Under the pieces are notes generated by a model. It was given only the letters and a program-made list of their open reading frames with translations, searched no databases and was not told the origin of the DNA. 40,917 nucleotides of DNA, taken from contig NZWR01000006.1 of the NCBI GenBank assembly GCA_002698305.1, forward strand, positions 1 through 40,917. The letters run 5' to 3'. The stretch is from Candidatus Campbellbacteria bacterium. Its GTDB lineage: Bacteria > Patescibacteriota > Minisyncoccia > Phycocordibacterales > UBA1006. Below are positions 1 through 38,776 of the stretch, piece by piece; the first letter of the stretch is position 1; the number at the start of each line of letters is the position of its first letter. Both the position numbers and the translations under genes were made by a program.

Positions 1-34
1 GTGTTTCTGAGATTGTATTTGAGTATCCAGCCAT
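1..34 (-). CDS. 5' end of a hypothetical ORF running off the left edge (MAGYSNTISET...)
   Basis: ATG at 32-34 (minus) lies 6 nt downstream of a TATAAT (41-46, minus). This is the same leaderless geometry seen at about 20 other genes. The frame stays open to the window edge. Confidence 0.25.
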   Translation of the reverse strand, partial: MAGYSNTISET

Positions 35-50
35 AGTTAAATTATACCAG

Positions 51-140
51 ACTAGAACATTTCTCGAACTAAAAATCACCTTACAGAATAAGGTGATTTT
101 CTTGTAGCTGGCAGACTGGGATGACGTTCGAACTTTTTTA
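51..140 (-). repeat. Junction-module copy A (type-2 hairpin)
   Basis: Aligns by eye with modules at 34361-34467 and 32988-33048. It has a CTCGAACT core (63-70), an A5-TCACCTTA/TAAGGTGA-T4 hairpin (71-100), a GCTGGCAGACTGGGATGACGTTCGAAC arm (107-133) and a TTTTTTAAAAGAAAA tail. Confidence 0.7.
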
Positions 141-172
141 AAAGAAAAAGCTACAAATATTTAATTTGTAGC
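140..172 (-). terminator. Intrinsic terminator of the 189..590 ORF
   Basis: GCTACAAA/TTTGTAGC stem (150-157/165-172), followed on the minus strand by a T-rich run. Confidence 0.6.
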
Positions 173-188
173 CAGTTTCTATTAAATT

Positions 189-590
189 TTAAGCAATTGC
201 TTTTAGCGTTGATCCAAAAGTCATTTTATTAATGTTATTTTGACGATAGAAACTACCTTTGAACTCTTCGTTGGTATATAAGCGATAGATTTCTTTTAAC
301 ATTTCTATTGCTTCATCACACAAGGGAACTTTTTCAATTCCTGCGCTTCCATGAATAAATGTATTAAGTGCAATGTTACCAATACCAACCCAACCAGCAT
401 GTCGTGCCTTTGGGTGAACTATTACTATTTCACCAGGTTTCATAGCCATTGGAACATCCCCACTAAAATGTAGTGCCAGACATTCTCCTATGTGTGAATA
501 TGAAACGGTGTGAATGTTACCAAGCAAGGAAATTTTTTTTGATTCAAATGCTTCTTTAATCTTTTTGATATTTTCTATTACGTTGCTCAT
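189..590 (-). CDS. Hypothetical protein (133 aa), cassette cargo downstream of tRNA-Gln
   Basis: Intact ORF bracketed by a consensus promoter (631-659) and a terminator (140-172). No family recognised. Confidence 0.6.
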   Translation of the reverse strand: MSNVIENIKKIKEAFESKKISLLGNIHTVSYSHIGECLALHFSGDVPMAMKPGEIVIVHPKARHAGWVGIGNIALNTFIHGSAGIEKVPLCDEAIEMLKEIYRLYTNEEFKGSFYRQNNINKMTFGSTLKAIA

Positions 591-630
591 TTTAAATGAT
601 TTAAGTTTATATTAAGTTTTTATGAGAATA

Positions 631-659
631 ATTATATCATCTATATAAATAGTTGTCAA
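631..659 (-). promoter_or_regulatory. Sigma70-type promoter TTGACA-17-TATAAT (minus strand)
   Basis: tgtcaa at 654-659 and attata at 631-636 on the plus strand, 17-bp spacer. The -35 box is part of the repeated junction module. Confidence 0.6.
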
Positions 660-731
660 CATATGACTTGTTTAGGATTAGAATCAAAAACACTATATGA
701 AATATAGTGTTTTTAGATAAATGCTGTGTTG
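654..731 (-). repeat. Junction-module copy G, fused to the 3' end of tRNA-Gln
   Basis: High by-eye similarity to 32423-32500 and 35992-36075. Shared parts are TTGAC, GATTAGAAT/GATTCGAAC, the AAAAACACTATATGAAATATAGTGTTTTT hairpin (686-714) and GTGTTGCTG, which runs straight into the tRNA discriminator base. Confidence 0.75.
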
Positions 732-802
732 CTGCTCGACTAGGATTCGAACCTAGATAGTCGGTACCAGAAACCGAAGTCCTACCATTAGACGATCGAG
801 CA
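732..802 (-). tRNA. tRNA-Gln: tRNA-Gln (anticodon CTG)
   Basis: Minus-strand cloverleaf folded by hand. Acceptor TGCTCGA/TCGAGCA with U1-A72, anticodon stem TCGGT/ACCGA, loop TTCTGGT, T-arm CTAGG-TTCGAAT-CCTAG, discriminator G. CCA is not encoded. Confidence 0.85.
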
Positions 803-5434: not shown

Positions 5435-7225
5435 TTATTTTGATTGACGTTTATTCCGTGCTCGTTCAGATTCTTTCAAATATTGTTTGCGCAATCGGAT
5501 TGCATCAGGAGTGACTTCCAAATACTCGTCTTCTCGCATTAACCCCATCGCCATTTCAAGCGTTAATTCGATAGGGGGCGTGAGTTTAATTGATTCATCA
5601 GATCCAGATGCTCGAACATTAGTGAGTTGCTTTCCTTTCGTCGGATTTACCTCCATATCAGCTCCTTTGACCGTATTTCCAACAACCATTCCTTCGTATA
5701 CTTCGGTTCCAGGTGAAATATATAGTGACCCTCGCTCCTGAAGATTCGCTAATGAAAATCCAAGTGCTTTCCCTGTTGCCATTGAAATCATTGATCCAAC
5801 TTCAGTTTTCATGATTGGACCAGCAAATGGTTTAAAGTCTTCAAAAGTCGTCGTCAAAATTCCTTCCCCTTTCGTATCTACAATAAATTCATTTCGGTAG
5901 CCAAGTAATCCTCGCGTAGGTACCGAGAAAATCATTTTTGTCTGACCGTTTTCGGTTTGCATATCATTCATTATTCCCTTTCGTTTTCCAAGCTTGTCAA
6001 TAACTGAGCCTGAAAACTCTTCAGGAACTAAAATAGTTACCTCTTCAAATGGTTCATGCTGCATACTATCAATATCTTTGATGATTACCTCTGGTTGTGA
6101 GACGGCAAGTTCAAACCCTTCTCGCCTCATGTTTTCGATAAGTACTGCGATGTGTAATTCTCCACGACCAAAAACTTTAAATTTTGACCCATTACCCGTA
6201 TCTATTTTAAGCCCTACATTCACTTCAAGTTCTTTTTCAAGACGCTCTAGAATTTGACGTGATGTTAGATATTTTCCAACTTTTCCTGAAAACGGTGAAT
6301 CGTTAACGAACAGGTTCATAGAAATAGTTGGTTCATCAACAGAAATTGCCGGGAGTAATTCTCCAGCATCTTTGGCTAGAATAGTTTGCCCGATAAAAAT
6401 ATCAGGAAGTCCAGCAATCATAACAATATCACCTGCTGAAGCTTCTTCTACCTCGACTTTTTCAAGGCCTTTAAATGAAAAGAGTTTTGAAATCTTCCCT
6501 GAAATGGTTGCTTCTTCAGTCTTGAGAAAAATAGTTTGCCCATTTTTTACAGTCCCATTATAGATACGTGCAATACCCATACGTCCAAGGAAGTTATCAT
6601 ACGCAAGGTTAAATACTTGCCCTTGCAATTCCTCTGAAAGCCTTTCTTCTGTAGCTACATTAGGTACCTCCTCTAAAACTAAATCAAGAAGTGGTGTTAA
6701 ATCCTTCATTTCATCATCCATTGATAGTCCAGCAACACCATCACGCCCGACAGCATAGACTGTTTTAAAATCCAATTGTTCGTCGTCAGCACCTAAATCA
6801 AGAAATAGCTCATACACATCTTCTTGTGCTTTTTCTACATCAGCTGCGGGTTTATCAATCTTGTTTAAAACAAGAATTGGTTTCAACCCTAATTCAAGTG
6901 ATTTTTTCAAAACGAATTTGGTTTGCGGCATTGGTCCTTCAGCAGCATCAACAATCAACAAAACAGAGTCAATTGAACGTAGTACTCGCTCAACCTCTGA
7001 TCCGAAATCCGCGTGACCTGGTGTATCTAAGATATTGATTTTTGTGTCTTTATAAATGATCGAGGTATTTTTTGCATAAATAGTAATACCACGCTCTTTT
7101 TCAAGATCGTTTGAATCCATTGATACGCCACGCTCTACCATTCCCGTTTGCTCAAGAATCGCATCGGTCAATGTTGTTTTCCCGTGGTCAACGTGGGCAA
7201 TAATAGCTATATTTCTAATTTCCAT
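5435..7225 (-). CDS. typA: Translational GTPase TypA/BipA
   Basis: AHVDHGKTT G1 motif and DTPGHADF G3 motif. About 600 aa with an EF-G-like layout and the characteristic TypA C-terminus. Confidence 0.9.
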   Translation of the reverse strand: MEIRNIAIIAHVDHGKTTLTDAILEQTGMVERGVSMDSNDLEKERGITIYAKNTSIIYKDTKINILDTPGHADFGSEVERVLRSIDSVLLIVDAAEGPMPQTKFVLKKSLELGLKPILVLNKIDKPAADVEKAQEDVYELFLDLGADDEQLDFKTVYAVGRDGVAGLSMDDEMKDLTPLLDLVLEEVPNVATEERLSEELQGQVFNLAYDNFLGRMGIARIYNGTVKNGQTIFLKTEEATISGKISKLFSFKGLEKVEVEEASAGDIVMIAGLPDIFIGQTILAKDAGELLPAISVDEPTISMNLFVNDSPFSGKVGKYLTSRQILERLEKELEVNVGLKIDTGNGSKFKVFGRGELHIAVLIENMRREGFELAVSQPEVIIKDIDSMQHEPFEEVTILVPEEFSGSVIDKLGKRKGIMNDMQTENGQTKMIFSVPTRGLLGYRNEFIVDTKGEGILTTTFEDFKPFAGPIMKTEVGSMISMATGKALGFSLANLQERGSLYISPGTEVYEGMVVGNTVKGADMEVNPTKGKQLTNVRASGSDESIKLTPPIELTLEMAMGLMREDEYLEVTPDAIRLRKQYLKESERARNKRQSK

Positions 7226-11157: not shown

Positions 11158-12087
11158 TTATATAATTGAGTTATCTGATAAATAATAATGAACAACTTCT
11201 CTTAGATCTGTGTGTTTTGGAAGAAAAGTAATGTCTTTATGATGTTCAGATTGAACATGTTGGTTAACTAGCATTTCTTGTGCAAAATCTCCATATACAA
11301 TTCTTAGCATCCACTGCTTTACCGTCACATAGAACCATGCTTTTTTAACTGCCCCTATTGCGCTTGAAAACTGTTTTTGAGTGGTGCTGGTCGTACTAAC
11401 TCCATTAATGATGGGTGGTGTATCTTGAGTAAGTGCTCTGACATATAAATGAACAAGATCTCTTATATCAATCCATGGGAAATAATCATCACCATTACCA
11501 AGAATACCTCCTACCTTAAGTTTAAAGGTATTAGCTACTTCTTTTAAAATTCCACCCCTTCCAATAATATGCCCATTTCTAATACAGGTCGTTTGAATAC
11601 CAGACGCTTGGGCACGCAAGACCTCATCCTCCCACGCTTCTACAACCTCTGAAAGAAAATAATAATTTTTTCGCTCTGATGATTCTACAAGAACTTCGCC
11701 TGGCTGATCACCATACCAACCAACCGCAGAAGCAGCTACCAAGCGTTCAGGTTTATATCTCTCTTGAGATATAAACTCAACCAAATGACGTGACCCATTC
11801 ACACGTGAATCCCAAATTCCTTGTTTGTGTTCTTTGGTAAATCTTCCAAAAATATTTTTTCCTGCAAGATGAATATAGGCGTGGGGATCTTCTAATAATG
11901 AGTAATCTGCATCATCTTTATTAAAAGGTTCACTGAGGTTTTTTTCAAAAAATGAAATTTGCTCATCGTTAATACGAGATGGATGCAGGTCCATTACCAC
12001 AATTTCATATCCACCCAGATCCAATAATTTTTTTATAATTTGCGTTCCCAGGAAACCAGAACCACCTGTAATAATTACTTTCTTCAT
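11158..12087 (-). CDS. SDR-type epimerase-family protein (YfcH/TIGR01777-like)
   Basis: Rossmann motif ITGGSGFLG, about 300 aa, with a DUF1731-like C-terminus. Confidence 0.65.
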   Translation of the reverse strand: MKKVIITGGSGFLGTQIIKKLLDLGGYEIVVMDLHPSRINDEQISFFEKNLSEPFNKDDADYSLLEDPHAYIHLAGKNIFGRFTKEHKQGIWDSRVNGSRHLVEFISQERYKPERLVAASAVGWYGDQPGEVLVESSERKNYYFLSEVVEAWEDEVLRAQASGIQTTCIRNGHIIGRGGILKEVANTFKLKVGGILGNGDDYFPWIDIRDLVHLYVRALTQDTPPIINGVSTTSTTQKQFSSAIGAVKKAWFYVTVKQWMLRIVYGDFAQEMLVNQHVQSEHHKDITFLPKHTDLREVVHYYLSDNSII

Positions 12088-32040: not shown

Positions 32041-32063
32041 ATGTTGTGGAATTATATAACTTA

Positions 32064-32090
32064 TGATGTTCGAACTTTTGTAAAAGAAAA
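32064..32090 (-). repeat. Junction-module half-copy F (only the TGATGTTCGAAC-TTTTGTAAAAGAAAA part)
   Basis: Matches 34441-34467 and 121-147. Lacks the GCTGGCCGTTTGGG part and everything beyond it. Confidence 0.65.
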
Positions 32091-32422: not shown

Positions 32423-32526
32423 AGTCAATATCTAACCTGTCTAGGATTCGAACTAAAAACACTATATGAAATATAGTGTTTTTAAGTAGAAAGTGTGTTG
32501 CTGGCCGTTTGGGATGATGTTCGAAC
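32423..32526 (-). repeat. Junction-module copy B (complete, type-1 hairpin)
   Basis: AGTCAA (-35 complement), CTAGGATTCGAACT, hairpin AAAAACACTATATGAAATATAGTGTTTTT (32455-32483) and GTGTGTTGCTGGCCGTTTGGGATGATGTTCGAAC. Ends at the stop codon of the next ORF. Confidence 0.8.
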
Positions 32527-32973
32527 TTATTTAAATTGAAATTCTCTTAGATAATCAATATATTCTTCTGGGAAATTATGAACTGATGCATGTTTTATGA
32601 TGTTTTCTAAATATTCTTGATTGGGAGATATTTCAATTTCAGGTATTGAAACATATAAATAACAATTGAGGAATTTGTTATTAGGAATTTGAACTTTTAT
32701 TGATTTACGAATGTAAGCACTAGGGTCTTCTATATAATCCAATGTATCTAAGTCCTCTTTTGAAATCTTATACACAATCCCATACACATTTCTCCCTTTA
32801 TTTGACTCTATACTTGCAACACCACCTTCGATATAGGTACCTTTTCTATTAAAACAAATATTATAATTAGAAATAAATCCTTTTGATAAAAATTCTGCTG
32901 TTGAGCATCGTTTTTTCATTCTCTGTTGATCTATATTAGAACCATAAGCAAAGTATAAAATACTATTTTTCAT
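32527..32973 (-). CDS. Gamma-glutamylcyclotransferase / AIG2-like family protein, cassette 2
   Basis: YFAYGSNIDQQRMKKRC N-terminal motif, VYGIVYKI...LDYIED core. TGCTATAAT lies 6 nt upstream of the ATG. Confidence 0.6.
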   Translation of the reverse strand: MKNSILYFAYGSNIDQQRMKKRCSTAEFLSKGFISNYNICFNRKGTYIEGGVASIESNKGRNVYGIVYKISKEDLDTLDYIEDPSAYIRKSIKVQIPNNKFLNCYLYVSIPEIEISPNQEYLENIIKHASVHNFPEEYIDYLREFQFK

Positions 32974-32987
32974 TTTATGATTATAGC

Positions 32988-33048
32988 AAAAATCACTAAC
33001 AAAATAAGGTGGTTTTTAGTTGCTGGCCGTTTGGGATGATGTTCGAAC
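32988..33048 (-). repeat. Junction-module copy C (partial, degenerate type-2 hairpin)
   Basis: AAAAATCAC...AAGGTGGTTTTT followed by AGTTGCTGGCCGTTTGGGATGATGTTCGAAC, which is identical to copies B and D over the arm. Confidence 0.7.
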
Positions 33049-33132
33049 TTATTTATCAAATCAAACCTTCGATTGAAGGTCTAGGTTACCACTATAATTA
33101 ACAAAATATAAATCTCAGGCATTTTATACTAA

Positions 33133-34318: not shown

Positions 34319-34467
34319 AGTCAATTAATTATTTAGCGATTTTTCGTTTGATATAGCAAACTAGGATAAAGTTCGAACCAAAAATCACCTTATCCTAGAA
34401 GGTGATTTTTAGATAAATATTTCTTGCTGGCCGTTTGGGATGATGTTCGAACTTTTGCAAAAGAAAA
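34319..34467 (-). repeat. Junction-module copy D (complete, type-2 hairpin)
   Basis: AGTCAA (34319-34324), CTAGGATAAAGTTCGAACC, hairpin AAAAATCACCTT-ATCCTAG-AAGGTGATTTTT (34380-34410), CTTGCTGGCCGTTTGGGATGATGTTCGAAC and TTTTGCAAAAGAAAA. Confidence 0.8.
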
Positions 34468-35991: not shown

Positions 35992-36078
35992 AGTCAACAT
36001 ATAACCTGTTTAAGATTCGAACTAAAAACACTATCTGAAATATAGTGTTTTTTTAAGTAAATAGTGTGTTGCTGGCCG
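35992..36078 (-). repeat. Junction-module half-copy E (promoter, hairpin and GTTGCTGGCCG part only)
   Basis: AGTCAACATATAACCTGTTTAAGATTCGAACT, hairpin at 36024-36054, and GTGTGTTGCTGGCCG. Homology to the other copies stops after GGCCG at 36078. Confidence 0.75.
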
Positions 36079-36231
36079 AGTTGAGCTAGAACCGTGGTCG
36101 GTCAAGCCCTGTAAGGTATATTTATTAAGTTTTGAATATAATTTCAGACCCGTCCTGAGCACCTATATATTTCTCAAAAAGTGACAAAAGTGACACAGGA
36201 AAGCATTTTAAAGTTACATCCGTCTGTAATC

Positions 36232-37353
36232 TTATAAAAGCTCAAAAGGTTGATTAATAACCTCTGAATAATACTGTGATTGTTGTTCCAAATATTTTTT
36301 ACTGTCACTAAAGACCTTTGAATGAGCAGAACCAAATTGGTATGCATTAATCATTCTAGAAAATATCAATTGGTCTTCTTTGCTCCTTAGAAAATTTTCT
36401 CCATCCATTCTCAATTTAGGATGAAAAATAATTGCCTTACAAGGTGTAAGCGGTAAGGCAAGAGTTAAGTTTATATTTTTCATATCCCACCACACCGGGA
36501 AGTTCCACCAACCTCGAGAATTCTCAAAAAACAGAACTGGATTATCAGAGATTACAAATTTATTATCTGTTCCAGTAGTATCCAATATAAGAATATTTTT
36601 CTCATGAATATTTTGACTTATTTCACTCGCAATAATTTGTGAAAGTAATCTAGTGATAGATTCTACACTTTTGCCTGTCAGAGTAATTTTCTTACTATAA
36701 CTATTTAATTCCTCTTGTGTTACCTTAAATGAATTATTAATAATGATATTTTGAACAGTTTTTGGGTTAAATTCATGATCATTAACAAAAAGTTCTTTTT
36801 TGAAATCCAAGTTTTTTTCAGTGACTAAGAAAGAAATAAATTTATGTAGATTTTCATAAAAGTATGGAGTTCTTGTGATCTGGTGAGCAATAAAGGTTGC
36901 AATAATTGATGACTCAAGAAAGGTAAAATTTTGTGTTTTTTTAATATCTTGAATATATCGAACAACTCGCGACATTGATTCTTCTAGGTTTCCATAGACT
37001 TGTTTTTCAGCATAATCAGATTTATTTCCCTGTTTATCATCAAAAATATAGAAGTCTGTTTCTTGTGCTGCGTCTACTATTTTTTCGTCTGTAATACTTT
37101 TATTCTCAATAGAGAAGGCATATACAAAACCTAACTTACTTTGATCATCAGAAACACTAAATTTCTTCAGAATGAACTGAGGTATATAATGACCTCGAGC
37201 TTCACCATTATAAGTATTTTTGTAATAAGTTAATCGCCCAAGAATATTCATAATAAAAAAGATGATTCTTGCCTCAAATCTTGTTTTTCCTAATCTGTTT
37301 CTTAAACAAAAGCCAATAAAAGAACCGTGTTGTTTCGATAACCATTTTCTCAT
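36232..37353 (-). CDS. DUF4238-family protein
   Basis: N-terminal HYIPQFILKKFS matches the DUF4238 signature (HYVPQFYLxxF), about 370 aa. TGCTATTAT lies 6 nt upstream of the ATG. Confidence 0.55.
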   Translation of the reverse strand: MRKWLSKQHGSFIGFCLRNRLGKTRFEARIIFFIMNILGRLTYYKNTYNGEARGHYIPQFILKKFSVSDDQSKLGFVYAFSIENKSITDEKIVDAAQETDFYIFDDKQGNKSDYAEKQVYGNLEESMSRVVRYIQDIKKTQNFTFLESSIIATFIAHQITRTPYFYENLHKFISFLVTEKNLDFKKELFVNDHEFNPKTVQNIIINNSFKVTQEELNSYSKKITLTGKSVESITRLLSQIIASEISQNIHEKNILILDTTGTDNKFVISDNPVLFFENSRGWWNFPVWWDMKNINLTLALPLTPCKAIIFHPKLRMDGENFLRSKEDQLIFSRMINAYQFGSAHSKVFSDSKKYLEQQSQYYSEVINQPFELL

Positions 37354-37456
37354 TTATTTATAATAGCATTTTTATACTACTGTCTACCAAATAATGTTAC
37401 CAACAACCAACCCTATACTCGCTTAGCAAACATTCATATTGCGACATAATGTATAT

Positions 37457-38776
37457 ATGAATACAGTAACAAATGCACAAATAGGTTCAGCCCCAGTCAT
37501 TATTCAAAAAGATATCAACTATGTCCTCTATGCTCGTAAGTCTACTGAGAGTGACGAGAAACAAGCTCTCTCGATTGATTCACAAGTAAAAGAGATGAGA
37601 CAAATAGCAGAGCGAGATAATCTGAATATCATAGATATAAGACGTGAATCACATTCAGCAAAAGATTCAGGAAAACGACCAGTGTTTCTTGAAATATTAA
37701 ATGACTTACGATCTGGTAGATATACAGGAATACTCACATGGGCACCTGATAGGTTGAGTCGTAATGCTGGCGACCTTGGTTCATTAGTTGATTTAATGGA
37801 TGAAGGTAAACTCCAAGAAATCAGAACCTATGGTCAAAATTTCAAGAACTCACCAAATGAAAAATTTCTGTTAATGATTCTTTGCTCTCAAGCAAAGCTA
37901 GAGAATGATAACAAGAGCATTAATGTAAAACGAGGATTACGAACCAGAGTTGAAATGGGATTGTGGCCATCAGTAGCTCCTACAGGATATCTGAACCAAA
38001 AAATGATGGATAAGAAAGGAGAAGTAATTATTGATCCAGATCGAGGTCATATCATTAAACAAATATTTGAGAAAGTAGCCTATGAAAAGTGGTCAGGAAG
38101 AAAGATATACAACTGGCTCAAGTTTGATATGAATTTCAAGACAGCTCGTGGAAATAAAAGTCTTTCACTCAGTAACATCTATCTGATACTAGAAAACACC
38201 TTTTACTATGGTGTTTTCCAATACCCTAAAAAGAGTGGTAACTGGTATACAGGAATTCATAAACCCCTCGTTACCAAAGAACTCTATGATCTCGTACAAG
38301 ATCAAGTGAAAAGTAACATCCTAAGAGTTGAAAACAAAGAATTTGCTTTTACAAAACTTATGACCTGCGGATTGTGCGGTTCTGGTATTTCTGCCGACGA
38401 GAAGTTCAAGAAACTCAAAAATGGAGGCGTTAATCGACATGTATATTACGGATGTACAAGAAGTAAGGATAGGAATTGTATGGGTGGATATATTAATGAA
38501 ATTGATCTGATTAAACAATTTCAGAAACTTATTGAACAAGTGAAAATTTCTGAGAAAAGCATGAGGAACAAGATTAAGGAAGAAGTATCACAAATCAAAA
38601 AGTTTAATCAATTGCTACTTGGTATTGAGCAAGACATCAGCGTCAGCTCAATTGATATTCAAAACTATGCGAAGTTCATTTTGAAAGAGGGTTCGATAGA
38701 TGAGAAACGTGAGTTGCTTGGGTGTTTGAATGGAAAGATTGTTTTGAAGGATAAGAAGTTGGGGTTGGTAAAATAA
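37457..38776 (+). CDS. Large serine recombinase
   Basis: Resolvase catalytic domain (YARKSTESD...DRLSRN), a recombinase domain, the zinc ribbon CGLCGS...YYGCTRSKDRNC and a C-terminal coiled coil. ATG at 37457 lies 6 nt after CATAAT; the track start is a TTG at 37439. Confidence 0.85.
   Translation: MNTVTNAQIGSAPVIIQKDINYVLYARKSTESDEKQALSIDSQVKEMRQIAERDNLNIIDIRRESHSAKDSGKRPVFLEILNDLRSGRYTGILTWAPDRLSRNAGDLGSLVDLMDEGKLQEIRTYGQNFKNSPNEKFLLMILCSQAKLENDNKSINVKRGLRTRVEMGLWPSVAPTGYLNQKMMDKKGEVIIDPDRGHIIKQIFEKVAYEKWSGRKIYNWLKFDMNFKTARGNKSLSLSNIYLILENTFYYGVFQYPKKSGNWYTGIHKPLVTKELYDLVQDQVKSNILRVENKEFAFTKLMTCGLCGSGISADEKFKKLKNGGVNRHVYYGCTRSKDRNCMGGYINEIDLIKQFQKLIEQVKISEKSMRNKIKEEVSQIKKFNQLLLGIEQDISVSSIDIQNYAKFILKEGSIDEKRELLGCLNGKIVLKDKKLGLVK

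Follow-up and report, generated by a model that had tools for sequence, protein, structure and literature searches.

A tRNA-Gln-anchored array of small gene cassettes closed by a tRNA-like repeat in marine Patescibacteria, and a candidate large serine recombinase for its assembly

The contig NZWR01000006.1 of a Candidatus Campbellbacteria bacterium (assembly GCA_002698305.1), a representative of the Candidate Phyla Radiation (CPR)/Patescibacteria, was analysed over 40,917 nucleotides (positions 1 to 40,917, hereafter the window). This study concerns its first 802 nucleotides, in which a tRNA-Gln gene is followed by small gene cassettes, and the related loci (numbered with the prefix L) found in public genomes and metagenomes. 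All features of this region are encoded on the minus strand. The tRNA-Gln(CTG) gene (732..802; 731-802 according to ARAGORN), which anchors the cassettes as array 1, was recognized with Rfam RF00005 (58.2 bits) and its 3' end reads ...TCGAGCAGC. It is followed by the 5' leader of cassette 1 (591..730), which is composed of a spacer, an A/T-flanked hairpin of 29 nt (686-714), a degenerate T-arm-like stretch, GATTCTAATCCTAA (672-685), and a promoter (TTGACA at 654-659, TATAAT at 631-636). The cargo is gene133, an open reading frame (ORF) of 133 aa (189..590, from the ORF list). A preliminary description of this DNA, prepared from the sequence alone, had this gene driven by a perfect TTGACA-17-TATAAT, and a promoter scan agreed, adding a TG extension (659->631). 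No Pfam or NCBIfam family matched gene133, its protein is encoded on 24 public marine contigs (mostly TARA) of the same population, and homologues at 71-72% identity occur elsewhere. An intrinsic terminator (149..173, terminator scan), kept in locus L104, follows the gene.

Cassette 1 is closed by a 33-nt repeat, named here the arm. This copy, arm A (AAAAAAGTTCGAACGTCATCCCAGTCTGCCAGC, 107..139), was delimited with repeat families D2 and D6 and with the sequence logo presented below; the arm of the gene133 cassette ends in ...GTCTGCCAGC and its leader starts with AACACAGCATTTATC. Directly behind arm A lies the leader of cassette 2 (35..106, by direct reading of the sequence), which begins with TACAAGAAAATCACC and carries a hairpin (72-100) and a B-type partial tRNA-Gln 3' end, TAGTTCGAGAAATGTTCTAGTCTGG (47-71), fused to a TATAAT box (41-46). 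An ATG (32-34) is placed seven bases downstream of this box, and the first 11 codons of the cargo, gene192 (1..34), run off the window edge. Both repeat copy A and the edge ORF had been noticed before; in the contigs that extend further, the latter is a real ORF of 192 aa (L001 5431-6009 and seven others), which would be leaderless, judging by the spacing of its -10 box and ATG. The leader type of cassette 2 is also present directly behind arms in L014, L015, L026, L032 and L072.

The arm, of the form A.AAAAGTTCGAACATCATCCCAnnCnGCCAGCA, stands at the end of each cassette. It copies the 3' end of tRNA-Gln, GGTTCGAATCCTAGTCTGGCAGC, plus 5 extra bases after the T-loop motif GTTCGAA, as revealed by alignment of the arm (AGTTCGAACATCATCCCAGTCTGCCAGC) with the tRNA-Gln 3' ends of arm-bearing organisms (GGTTCGAAT-----CCTAGTCTGGCAGC). 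The logo, based on 104 distinct contexts, displays a sharply bounded block of 33-34 nt, A.AAAAGTTCGAACATCATCCCA[g/a/t][A/T]C[n]GCCAGCA, with an unconserved left flank and an A-rich right flank that is succeeded by a variable hairpin. Arm copies with at most 7 mismatches numbered 140 and came from metagenome-assembled genomes (MAGs) of Paceibacterota and Saccharibacteria and from metagenomes, and a degenerate arm pattern retrieved 13 stretches in species-representative genomes and 33 metagenome stretches. The hosts among the representatives are Candidatus Paceibacterota, Saccharibacteria, unclassified "bacterium" MAGs and one probably mis-binned MAG. In 13 of 13 arm loci with a nearby tRNA (the window and 12 others) this tRNA is tRNA-Gln (CTG or TTG), located upstream and co-oriented; L098 and L104 are further arm loci with tRNA-Gln, and the sole non-Gln tRNA at arm loci is a tRNA-Glu at a distance of 4.3 kb. 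The earlier notion of a tRNA-anchored tandem array with tRNA-related repeats is thus borne out, tRNA-Gln recurring in every arm locus that holds a nearby tRNA. The proposed likeness to islands flanked by partial-tRNA repeats holds for the anchored array and fails for the repeat as a simple displaced copy: the arm consensus is constant across phyla whatever the acceptor sequence of the local tRNA, which argues for a maintained site and not a decaying partial tRNA. To judge from its sequence, the arm is a conserved imitation of the tRNA-Gln tail.

Several other identities were rejected for the arm. It is not a real tRNA or tmRNA 3' end (ARAGORN and Rfam found none, and the arm is 5 nt too long), and no tRNA ending in GTTCGAACATCATCCCAAACGGCCAG, a check suggested earlier, was found. 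It is not a Xer/dif-like or lox-like symmetric site of 28-34 bp, as its halves are not inverted repeats in the logo, nor an attC-like hairpin with two GTTCGAA cores, as a second GTTCGA occurs in only 10 of 91 right flanks and at a variable distance, inconsistent even for an extruded hairpin. The arm lacks internal complementarity and has no T-stem partner. An uptake-signal or polarity sequence was discarded, arms being clustered and not spread genome-wide, and so was a free or viral form, since the viral contigs of IMG/VR yielded neither an arm match nor a relative of the tRNA-Gln-abutting recombinase described below.

The extent of the mobile unit was deduced from comparisons of leaders. The tRNA-side sequence 734->654 (minus strand) is 83% identical (68/82) to module B of a second array (32503->32423) and 81% identical (67/83) to the module at 36.0 kb (the F site, formerly E), with alignment scores of 52 and 49, respectively, against a maximum of 9 in 500 shuffles. 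Identity so far above the shuffled controls confirms that the flank at 654-731 is a near-copy of these modules, and the 29-nt hairpin AAAAACACTATATTTCATATAGTGTTTTT is identical in the tRNA-side leader and module B. The homology had been thought to stop exactly at the discriminator base; the shared block GTGTTGCTG (726-734) includes the last 3 nt of the tRNA (C71 A72 G73). That the tRNA body takes the place of the arm is correct only in part, because the arm is itself homologous to the last 22 nt of the tRNA, with the 5-nt insertion.

The module was also taken for one unit derived from, or targeted to, a tRNA 3' trailer. Here the connection with the tRNA was upheld and the trailer was not, and the target would be the tRNA-Gln 3' end itself. 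The decisive case is a gene133 homologue (72% identical) in GCA_013565595.1 (L104). Its leader and terminator correspond to those of the window, it has an arm of its own, and it is located 8.4 kb downstream of tRNA-Gln(CTG), behind an arm that closes a GrpB cassette. The arm therefore closes the upstream cassette, the supposed trailer is the leader of the next one, and on the left-hand side the tRNA tail and an arm can stand in for each other; the cassette unit is a leader, one or more genes and an arm. Other leaders behave alike. Type 1, found after the window tRNA, also follows modules B and F and occurs in L015 and L104; type 3 follows the tRNA of L016 and arms in L011 and L014; and type 4 follows the tRNA of L104 and arms in L104, L048, L043 and L012. 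The 3' end of the recombinase gene, which abuts tRNAs, is likewise found behind an arm in L015.

Array 1 continues beyond the left edge of the window, as anticipated. L001 extends 6.3 kb further and contains gene192 and then three arms (four in all) that separate genes of 151 and 93 aa (6095-6550 and 6648-6929); these two genes are encoded on the opposite strand and the arm orientation is unchanged. A CsoR/Cu-ATPase operon follows the last arm. Comparison of strains revealed that L005 and L001 share 99.97% identity as far as ...GGCCAGCAA in the arm behind gene192 and are unrelated beyond it, and that L041 and L082 match L001 at 99.5% identity starting 6 nt ahead of arm A (L041 over 3 kb), the DNA upstream of the shared part being composed of a 116-aa gene, a methyltransferase gene, an IS3 copy, a large serine recombinase (LSR) gene and tRNA-Gln(TTG). 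Since identity breaks there in L001/L005 and in L001/L041/L082, the variable segments are delimited by arms. Likewise, L033 departs from L023 and L048 directly behind an arm. The gene192 cassette (about 700 bp) has two left and two right neighbours, and all four combinations have been assembled (L001, L005, L041 and L082); therefore, this cassette is probably present at both tRNA-Gln loci. The left edge of the window falls exactly at this branch point.

Further observations concern cassette cargo and rearranged arrays. In L001 (6990-7160) and L041, the last array-1 arm is followed directly by GGTTGTGCTAGCACG(T/A)TAT.CGTGTTATAA, ahead of the CsoR/Cu-ATPase operon; the same arm-operator junction is present in the unrelated contig L040, and the copper operon may itself be a cassette. 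Pilin cassettes are numerous in Paceibacterota arrays (L011, L014, L016, L030, L044, L045 and L072); they encode type IV pilin-like proteins (MK..KGFTLIELLVV) and have an extended -10 box, TGGTATACT, about 7 nt ahead of the ATG, which points to leaderless mRNAs and to a pilin repertoire carried by cassettes. In Saccharibacteria-like loci (L028, L034, L036, L052, L053, L024 and L019), non-coding mini-elements of 170-290 nt stand after tRNA-Gln or arms. Each contains a hairpin and the tRNA-Gln 3' end in inverted form, and closes with the same end repeated exactly in direct orientation, TTCGATTCCCTGTCTGGCAGC (L036 from 1230, minus strand). The mini-elements could be tiny non-autonomous elements or structured RNAs. 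In L017 (1-1900), L031 and L054, arms or recombinase remnants are inverted and tRNA-Gln is absent after FtsX, which suggests inversions or deletions between sites.

The LSR genes that abut tRNA-Gln form one clade. The proteins are of 494-497 aa, carry Resolvase, Recombinase and zinc-ribbon domains (Pfam, LSR of L041) and end in ...LCPELLPD. In five or more lineages the gene is convergent with tRNA-Gln and ends 12 nt inside it, the tRNA 3' end containing the last four codons and the stop, and the junction being ...GTCTGGCAGC joined to AGTTCAGGACA, or in general form to A(G/A)TTCAG. A reverse test was performed, in which the search started from the LSR protein and the junction and the element end were inspected afterwards. 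Homologues at 100%, 58%, 53% and 48% identity all end in tRNA-Gln with the same junction, the target being either tRNA-Gln(TTG) adjoining dnaX or tRNA-Gln(CTG). The elements measure 3.3, 6.8, 8.1 and 11 kb and each closes at a single arm. Three of the four have a Rep gene beside the LSR (Viral_Rep + helicase, or REP_ORF2-G2P), the 3.3-kb marine element has an IS3 copy and a methyltransferase in its place, and the cargo includes restriction-modification systems. A member of this clade (P0121) is present in the same marine population as the window, L041 being the contig that is 99.5% identical to L001.

A more distant relative (43% identity) in L103 ends inside tRNA-Ser(GGA) and has an arm 4.9 kb away (6522-6547 and 11458-11551); this arm follows the common consensus except for its terminal CCCGC, which resembles the tRNA-Ser end TCCGC. 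The LSR gene found behind an arm in L015 is cut down to its first ~20 and last ~25 codons, a stub that would be the product expected of a newer insertion on the tRNA side and subsequent decay of the older element. The best NCBIfam hits of the tRNA-Gln LSR were CcrB and CcrA, with scores of 93, 88 and 62 bits so far below the cut-offs of 900, 700 and 900 for the CcrA, CcrB and CcrC equivalogs that the enzyme is not a Ccr. Neither the annotated genes of about 40 loci nor the window ORFs flanking either array included a tyrosine recombinase (PF00589). As a side observation, a LOOT RNA (Rfam RF03000, 66-67 bits) lies close to the LSR in L019 (1694-1802) and L023 (4671-4792), in the latter case inside a recombinase/Rep integrative element of a groundwater lineage.

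The geometry of the two sequences resembles that of serine integrase sites. The zinc-ribbon domain of the LI/A118 integrase recognizes a 9-bp motif that occupies positions 16-24 of the attP half-site; in attB the same motif is at 11-19, 5 bp nearer the centre (PMC3783163). In the arm, GTTCGAAnn is 5 bp further from the shared CAGC than in the tRNA, where the motif is GTTCGAATC. With the CA of CAGC as the centre, its positions are exactly 16-24 for the arm and 11-19 for the tRNA. The 5-bp offset is independent evidence; the arm would be an attP-type half-site and the tRNA tail an attB-type one. The proposed attB-type left half-site, GGTTCGAATCCTAGTCGAGCAGC (731..753, minus strand), reaches from the T-loop to the 3' end of the tRNA and was defined by alignment with arms and with the tRNA-Gln 3' ends of 12 other loci. 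In an intact attP the arm would be joined to AGTTCAGGACAC beside a full LSR gene; the reconstructed centre, CTGC-CA-GCAG, is only a 4-bp inverted repeat of weak symmetry.

Taken together, these data are probably best accounted for by an integration hot spot at tRNA-Gln, in which cassettes have accreted through the action of an LSR. Positions 1-802 would be the tRNA-proximal end of such a hot spot, shared by this marine lineage of CPR/Patescibacteria and many relatives. Mobile DNA would enter at the tRNA-Gln 3' end by site-specific recombination, most likely catalysed by the tRNA-Gln-abutting LSR clade, which would act on a tRNA tail serving as an attB-type half-site and an arm serving as an attP-type half-site, with the zinc-ribbon motif 5 bp further out in the arm. 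The crossover would take place within the shared ...CAGC, probably at CA. The inserted unit would consist of a 5' leader (spacer, terminator-like hairpin and its own promoter), one or a few genes, often with their own terminator, and the 33-nt arm, and cassettes devoid of an LSR gene would have been moved in trans. New units would enter beside the tRNA and shift older ones outward; recombinase and Rep genes would decay, or would never have been present, and the arms would persist. The gene133 cassette would then be the newest unit, hence the direct contact between its leader and the tRNA; it is closed by arm A and followed by the gene192 cassette.

A number of points weigh against this scenario. 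The LSR of the window itself (445 aa, 37439..38776, plus strand; Pfam Resolvase, Recombinase and Zn_ribbon_recom) shares only 33-36% identity with the tRNA-Gln-abutting clade, belongs to a different family and abuts neither a tRNA nor an arm. All intact LSR genes abut a tRNA, and no excised circle, empty site or intact attP (an arm beside a full LSR gene) was found. The exact positional match of the zinc-ribbon motif is only partly independent, because CA was picked within a 4-nt window. Right of the centre, neither arms nor tRNAs have a conserved or clear inverted half-site, and the canonical LSR dimer site is made of two recognizable halves. Given the unconserved right flank, the enzyme would therefore need to tolerate a nearly non-specific right half, and such tolerance would in turn permit repeated insertion at hybrid sites. 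The Ccr recombinases insert repeatedly at hybrid sites at orfX. Serial insertion requires relaxed, Ccr-like rules, because canonical LSRs are not known to recombine attP with attL or attR. Moreover, some of the public contigs may be chimeric through the gene192 cassette, and the search for tyrosine recombinases in unannotated loci (Pfam, 118 ORFs, the 25 most frequent families) did not exclude them exhaustively.

A more far-reaching view, which is offered tentatively as it has less than an even chance of being right, is that the arrays represent integron-like gene capture in CPR by means of an LSR in place of a tyrosine integrase, with tRNA-Gln as the fixed entry point and single-gene cassettes individually mobilized in trans by their arms. 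The sequences are compatible both with individually moving single-gene cassettes and with remnants of larger elements, and do not decide between them.

It is rather unlikely, though the most probable of the rivals, that the arms recombine by an agent other than the tRNA-Gln LSR, namely an LSR of the window type, an unseen tyrosine (integron-like) recombinase or RecA-dependent exchange, in which DNA taken up by natural transformation would find short anchors of homology in the conserved arms. From phylum to phylum the arms hardly vary, whereas the tRNA-abutting LSRs are mutually only 48-58% identical, and the right-hand half-sites are unconserved. The window-type LSR has at least 8000 matches at E <= 1e-10, and identities are mostly 68-75% among the 120 matches listed. 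Its family is very large, very widespread and unusually conserved in Patescibacteria, and the gene lies beside array 2 both here and in L072. Its homologues' islands (L066-L081) have no arms, however, and on this ground the window-type LSR is a disfavoured candidate for the arm recombinase. As for exchange by RecA, CPR carry competence-type pili and DprA genes occur in these loci, but 33 bp is marginal for it. A tyrosine recombinase faces the absence of PF00589 noted above, and any agent other than the tRNA-Gln LSR leaves the 5-bp offset and the LSR-bounded elements ending at arms unexplained.

There is a slight chance that the arms act primarily at the RNA level, as a tRNA-like 3'-UTR tag (for processing, stability or as a decoy) placed before terminators, their link with recombination being secondary. 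In most copies the arm is located just upstream of a terminator-like hairpin, and would consequently be transcribed at the 3' ends of many cassette mRNAs, and it does resemble a tRNA 3' end. A tag of this kind is difficult to reconcile with an arm that has neither internal pairing nor a T-stem partner, keeps its orientation also beside genes of the opposite strand, coincides with strain breakpoints and marks the far end of LSR elements. Finally, the possibility that the region is ordinary intergenic DNA, with a native tRNA-Gln trailer and immobile local duplications of a terminator and promoter, is highly improbable: although the order tRNA-gene133-arm-gene192 is fixed in 24 of 24 contigs of the population, relatives differ directly after tRNA-Gln and do not conserve the flank, the array continues and varies between strains, arms recur in other phyla, and the unit behind an arm in L104, where the leader travels with gene133, refutes a native trailer.

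With respect to known systems, the closest functional analogues are tycheposon islands and composite islands of staphylococcal cassette chromosome (SCC) elements, the closest mechanistic match is the att-site model of serine integrases, and integrons resemble the arrays only in layout. Tycheposons likewise reside in a marine streamlined host, insert at a specific tRNA 3' end, with later arrivals displacing earlier ones, accumulate degraded elements and tRNA-like repeats, carry accessory cargo and have an inward-facing integrase beside the tRNA with a small replication module adjoining. A full-length tRNA at the start and direct tRNA-derived repeats are present in the window and the 12 loci. 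The differences are also considerable. In Prochlorococcus, 910 of 937 tycheposon-type elements use a tyrosine recombinase, the repeats are true partial tRNAs, and tRNA-Gln is not among the seven tRNA sites (10.1101/2020.12.28.424599). The arrays described here, in CPR/Patescibacteria and at tRNA-Gln, have an LSR beside the tRNA and no annotated PF00589 protein, their repeat is a conserved imitation with a 5-nt insertion and its own consensus across phyla, and their units are mostly single-gene, 0.2-1.4 kb long, with promoter and terminator included.

SCC elements and composite islands, located at orfX/rlmH, are moved by the Ccr large serine recombinases; insertion takes place at the 3' end of a conserved gene, and tandem elements and recombinase-less pseudo-elements lie between short target-end repeats. 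Shared with the present arrays are the LSR, the 3'-end target, the tandem organization with target-end direct repeats and the one well-conserved site side. Unlike in SCC, the target is a tRNA gene, there is a single LSR and no CcrA/CcrB pair, the cassettes are far smaller, and the repeat represents an attP-type variant (+5 bp) instead of duplicating the attB core. With the LI/A118 system (PMC3783163) the arrays have in common a distal motif of 7-9 bp in both half-sites, 5 bp inward in attB, and an integrase gene beside att, and they differ in that only left half-sites are recognizable and hybrid sites would have to be used serially. The element end beside the junction encodes a recombinase composed of Resolvase, Recombinase and zinc-ribbon domains, and no recombination directionality factor was identified. 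As in integrons, small cassettes of the same orientation, each ended by a site repeat, follow a fixed anchor, and their content varies between strains and is mostly of unknown function. In contrast to integrons, the window array flanks and the annotated related loci held no IntI or other tyrosine recombinase, the arm has no attC imperfect-palindrome fold, the cassettes have their own promoters and are in some cases inverted, and the anchor is a tRNA gene.

No account of such a system came up in literature searches by sequence and by topic. An LSR-associated, tRNA-Gln-anchored array of self-contained cassettes in CPR, with a repeat that imitates the tRNA tail as an attP-type site, would therefore appear to be new. 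Little is understood of the ways in which CPR/Patescibacteria, with their very small genomes, acquire and exchange accessory genes. A defined entry site at tRNA-Gln and a signal at the cassette end would let variable gene pools be read from metagenomes, including many type IV pilin variants relevant to host attachment, and the array would explain recurrent assembly breaks in these genomes, the window itself ending at one. It would also provide a natural case of a serine integrase that reads a tRNA T-loop as the motif of its zinc-ribbon domain, its attP half-site being a +5-bp imitation of attB. This would make it a compact system for studying site choice by serine integrases and a candidate tool for integrating DNA in the few CPR bacteria that can be cultivated. 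If the integron-like interpretation were true, tiny genomes would have access to a cross-phylum accessory pool of pilins, metal resistance and defence genes.

The second array of the window (array 2) is a region of low G+C at 32.0-36.1 kb with the same build as array 1. Its cassettes encode proteins of 269 + 198, 363, 148 (AIG2-like) and 76 aa and are separated by arms E (34426..34458; formerly D), C (33022..33054) and B (32500..32532), all on the minus strand. The last arm (32063..32080, minus strand) is truncated, with only GTTCGAACATCAT left, and abuts the terminator of a pilin gene; strain L059 departs just past it. Array 2 begins not at a tRNA but at the F element (36071..36200, minus strand), a non-coding stretch of about 130 nt composed of a direct repeat, GTCACTTTTGTCACTTTTTG, a TATAAT-like box, then GGTGCTCAGGA..., and a tRNA-like-spaced end, GGTTCTAGCTCAACTCGGCCAGC, with the 21-nt spacing of the B type. 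The F element is 83% conserved in L072 and L073 (L072 4845-5000) despite a different neighbour gene, and related elements in L074, L075, L078 and L080 are identical as far as ...CAGTGAGCA and strain-variable thereafter. The F element might represent another type of anchor site or an unknown small RNA. A decayed tRNA or known RNA was rejected (no Rfam match even at E <= 10; fold z-score of only -1.6). In L074-L080, the 3' end of a gene for a 506-aa serine recombinase overlaps the F-related element.

The gene between the recombinase and the F element encodes a DUF4238 protein in the window (36232-37353, minus strand) and an unrelated 319-aa protein in L072 (5002-5961); as it differs between close relatives, this slot is also variable. 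A 133-aa gene of L072, considered as a gene133 homologue, proved to be unrelated. Window-type LSR genes often occur in methyltransferase/defence islands downstream of tRNA-Gln(TTG) or tRNA-Asn. In three of the loci (L066, L067 and L069), two tRNA-Gln(TTG) genes are located 131 nt apart, adjoining dnaX, and this duplicated tRNA-Gln(TTG) lies directly upstream of a defence island (T5orf172, methyltransferases, KAP NTPase and SNase).

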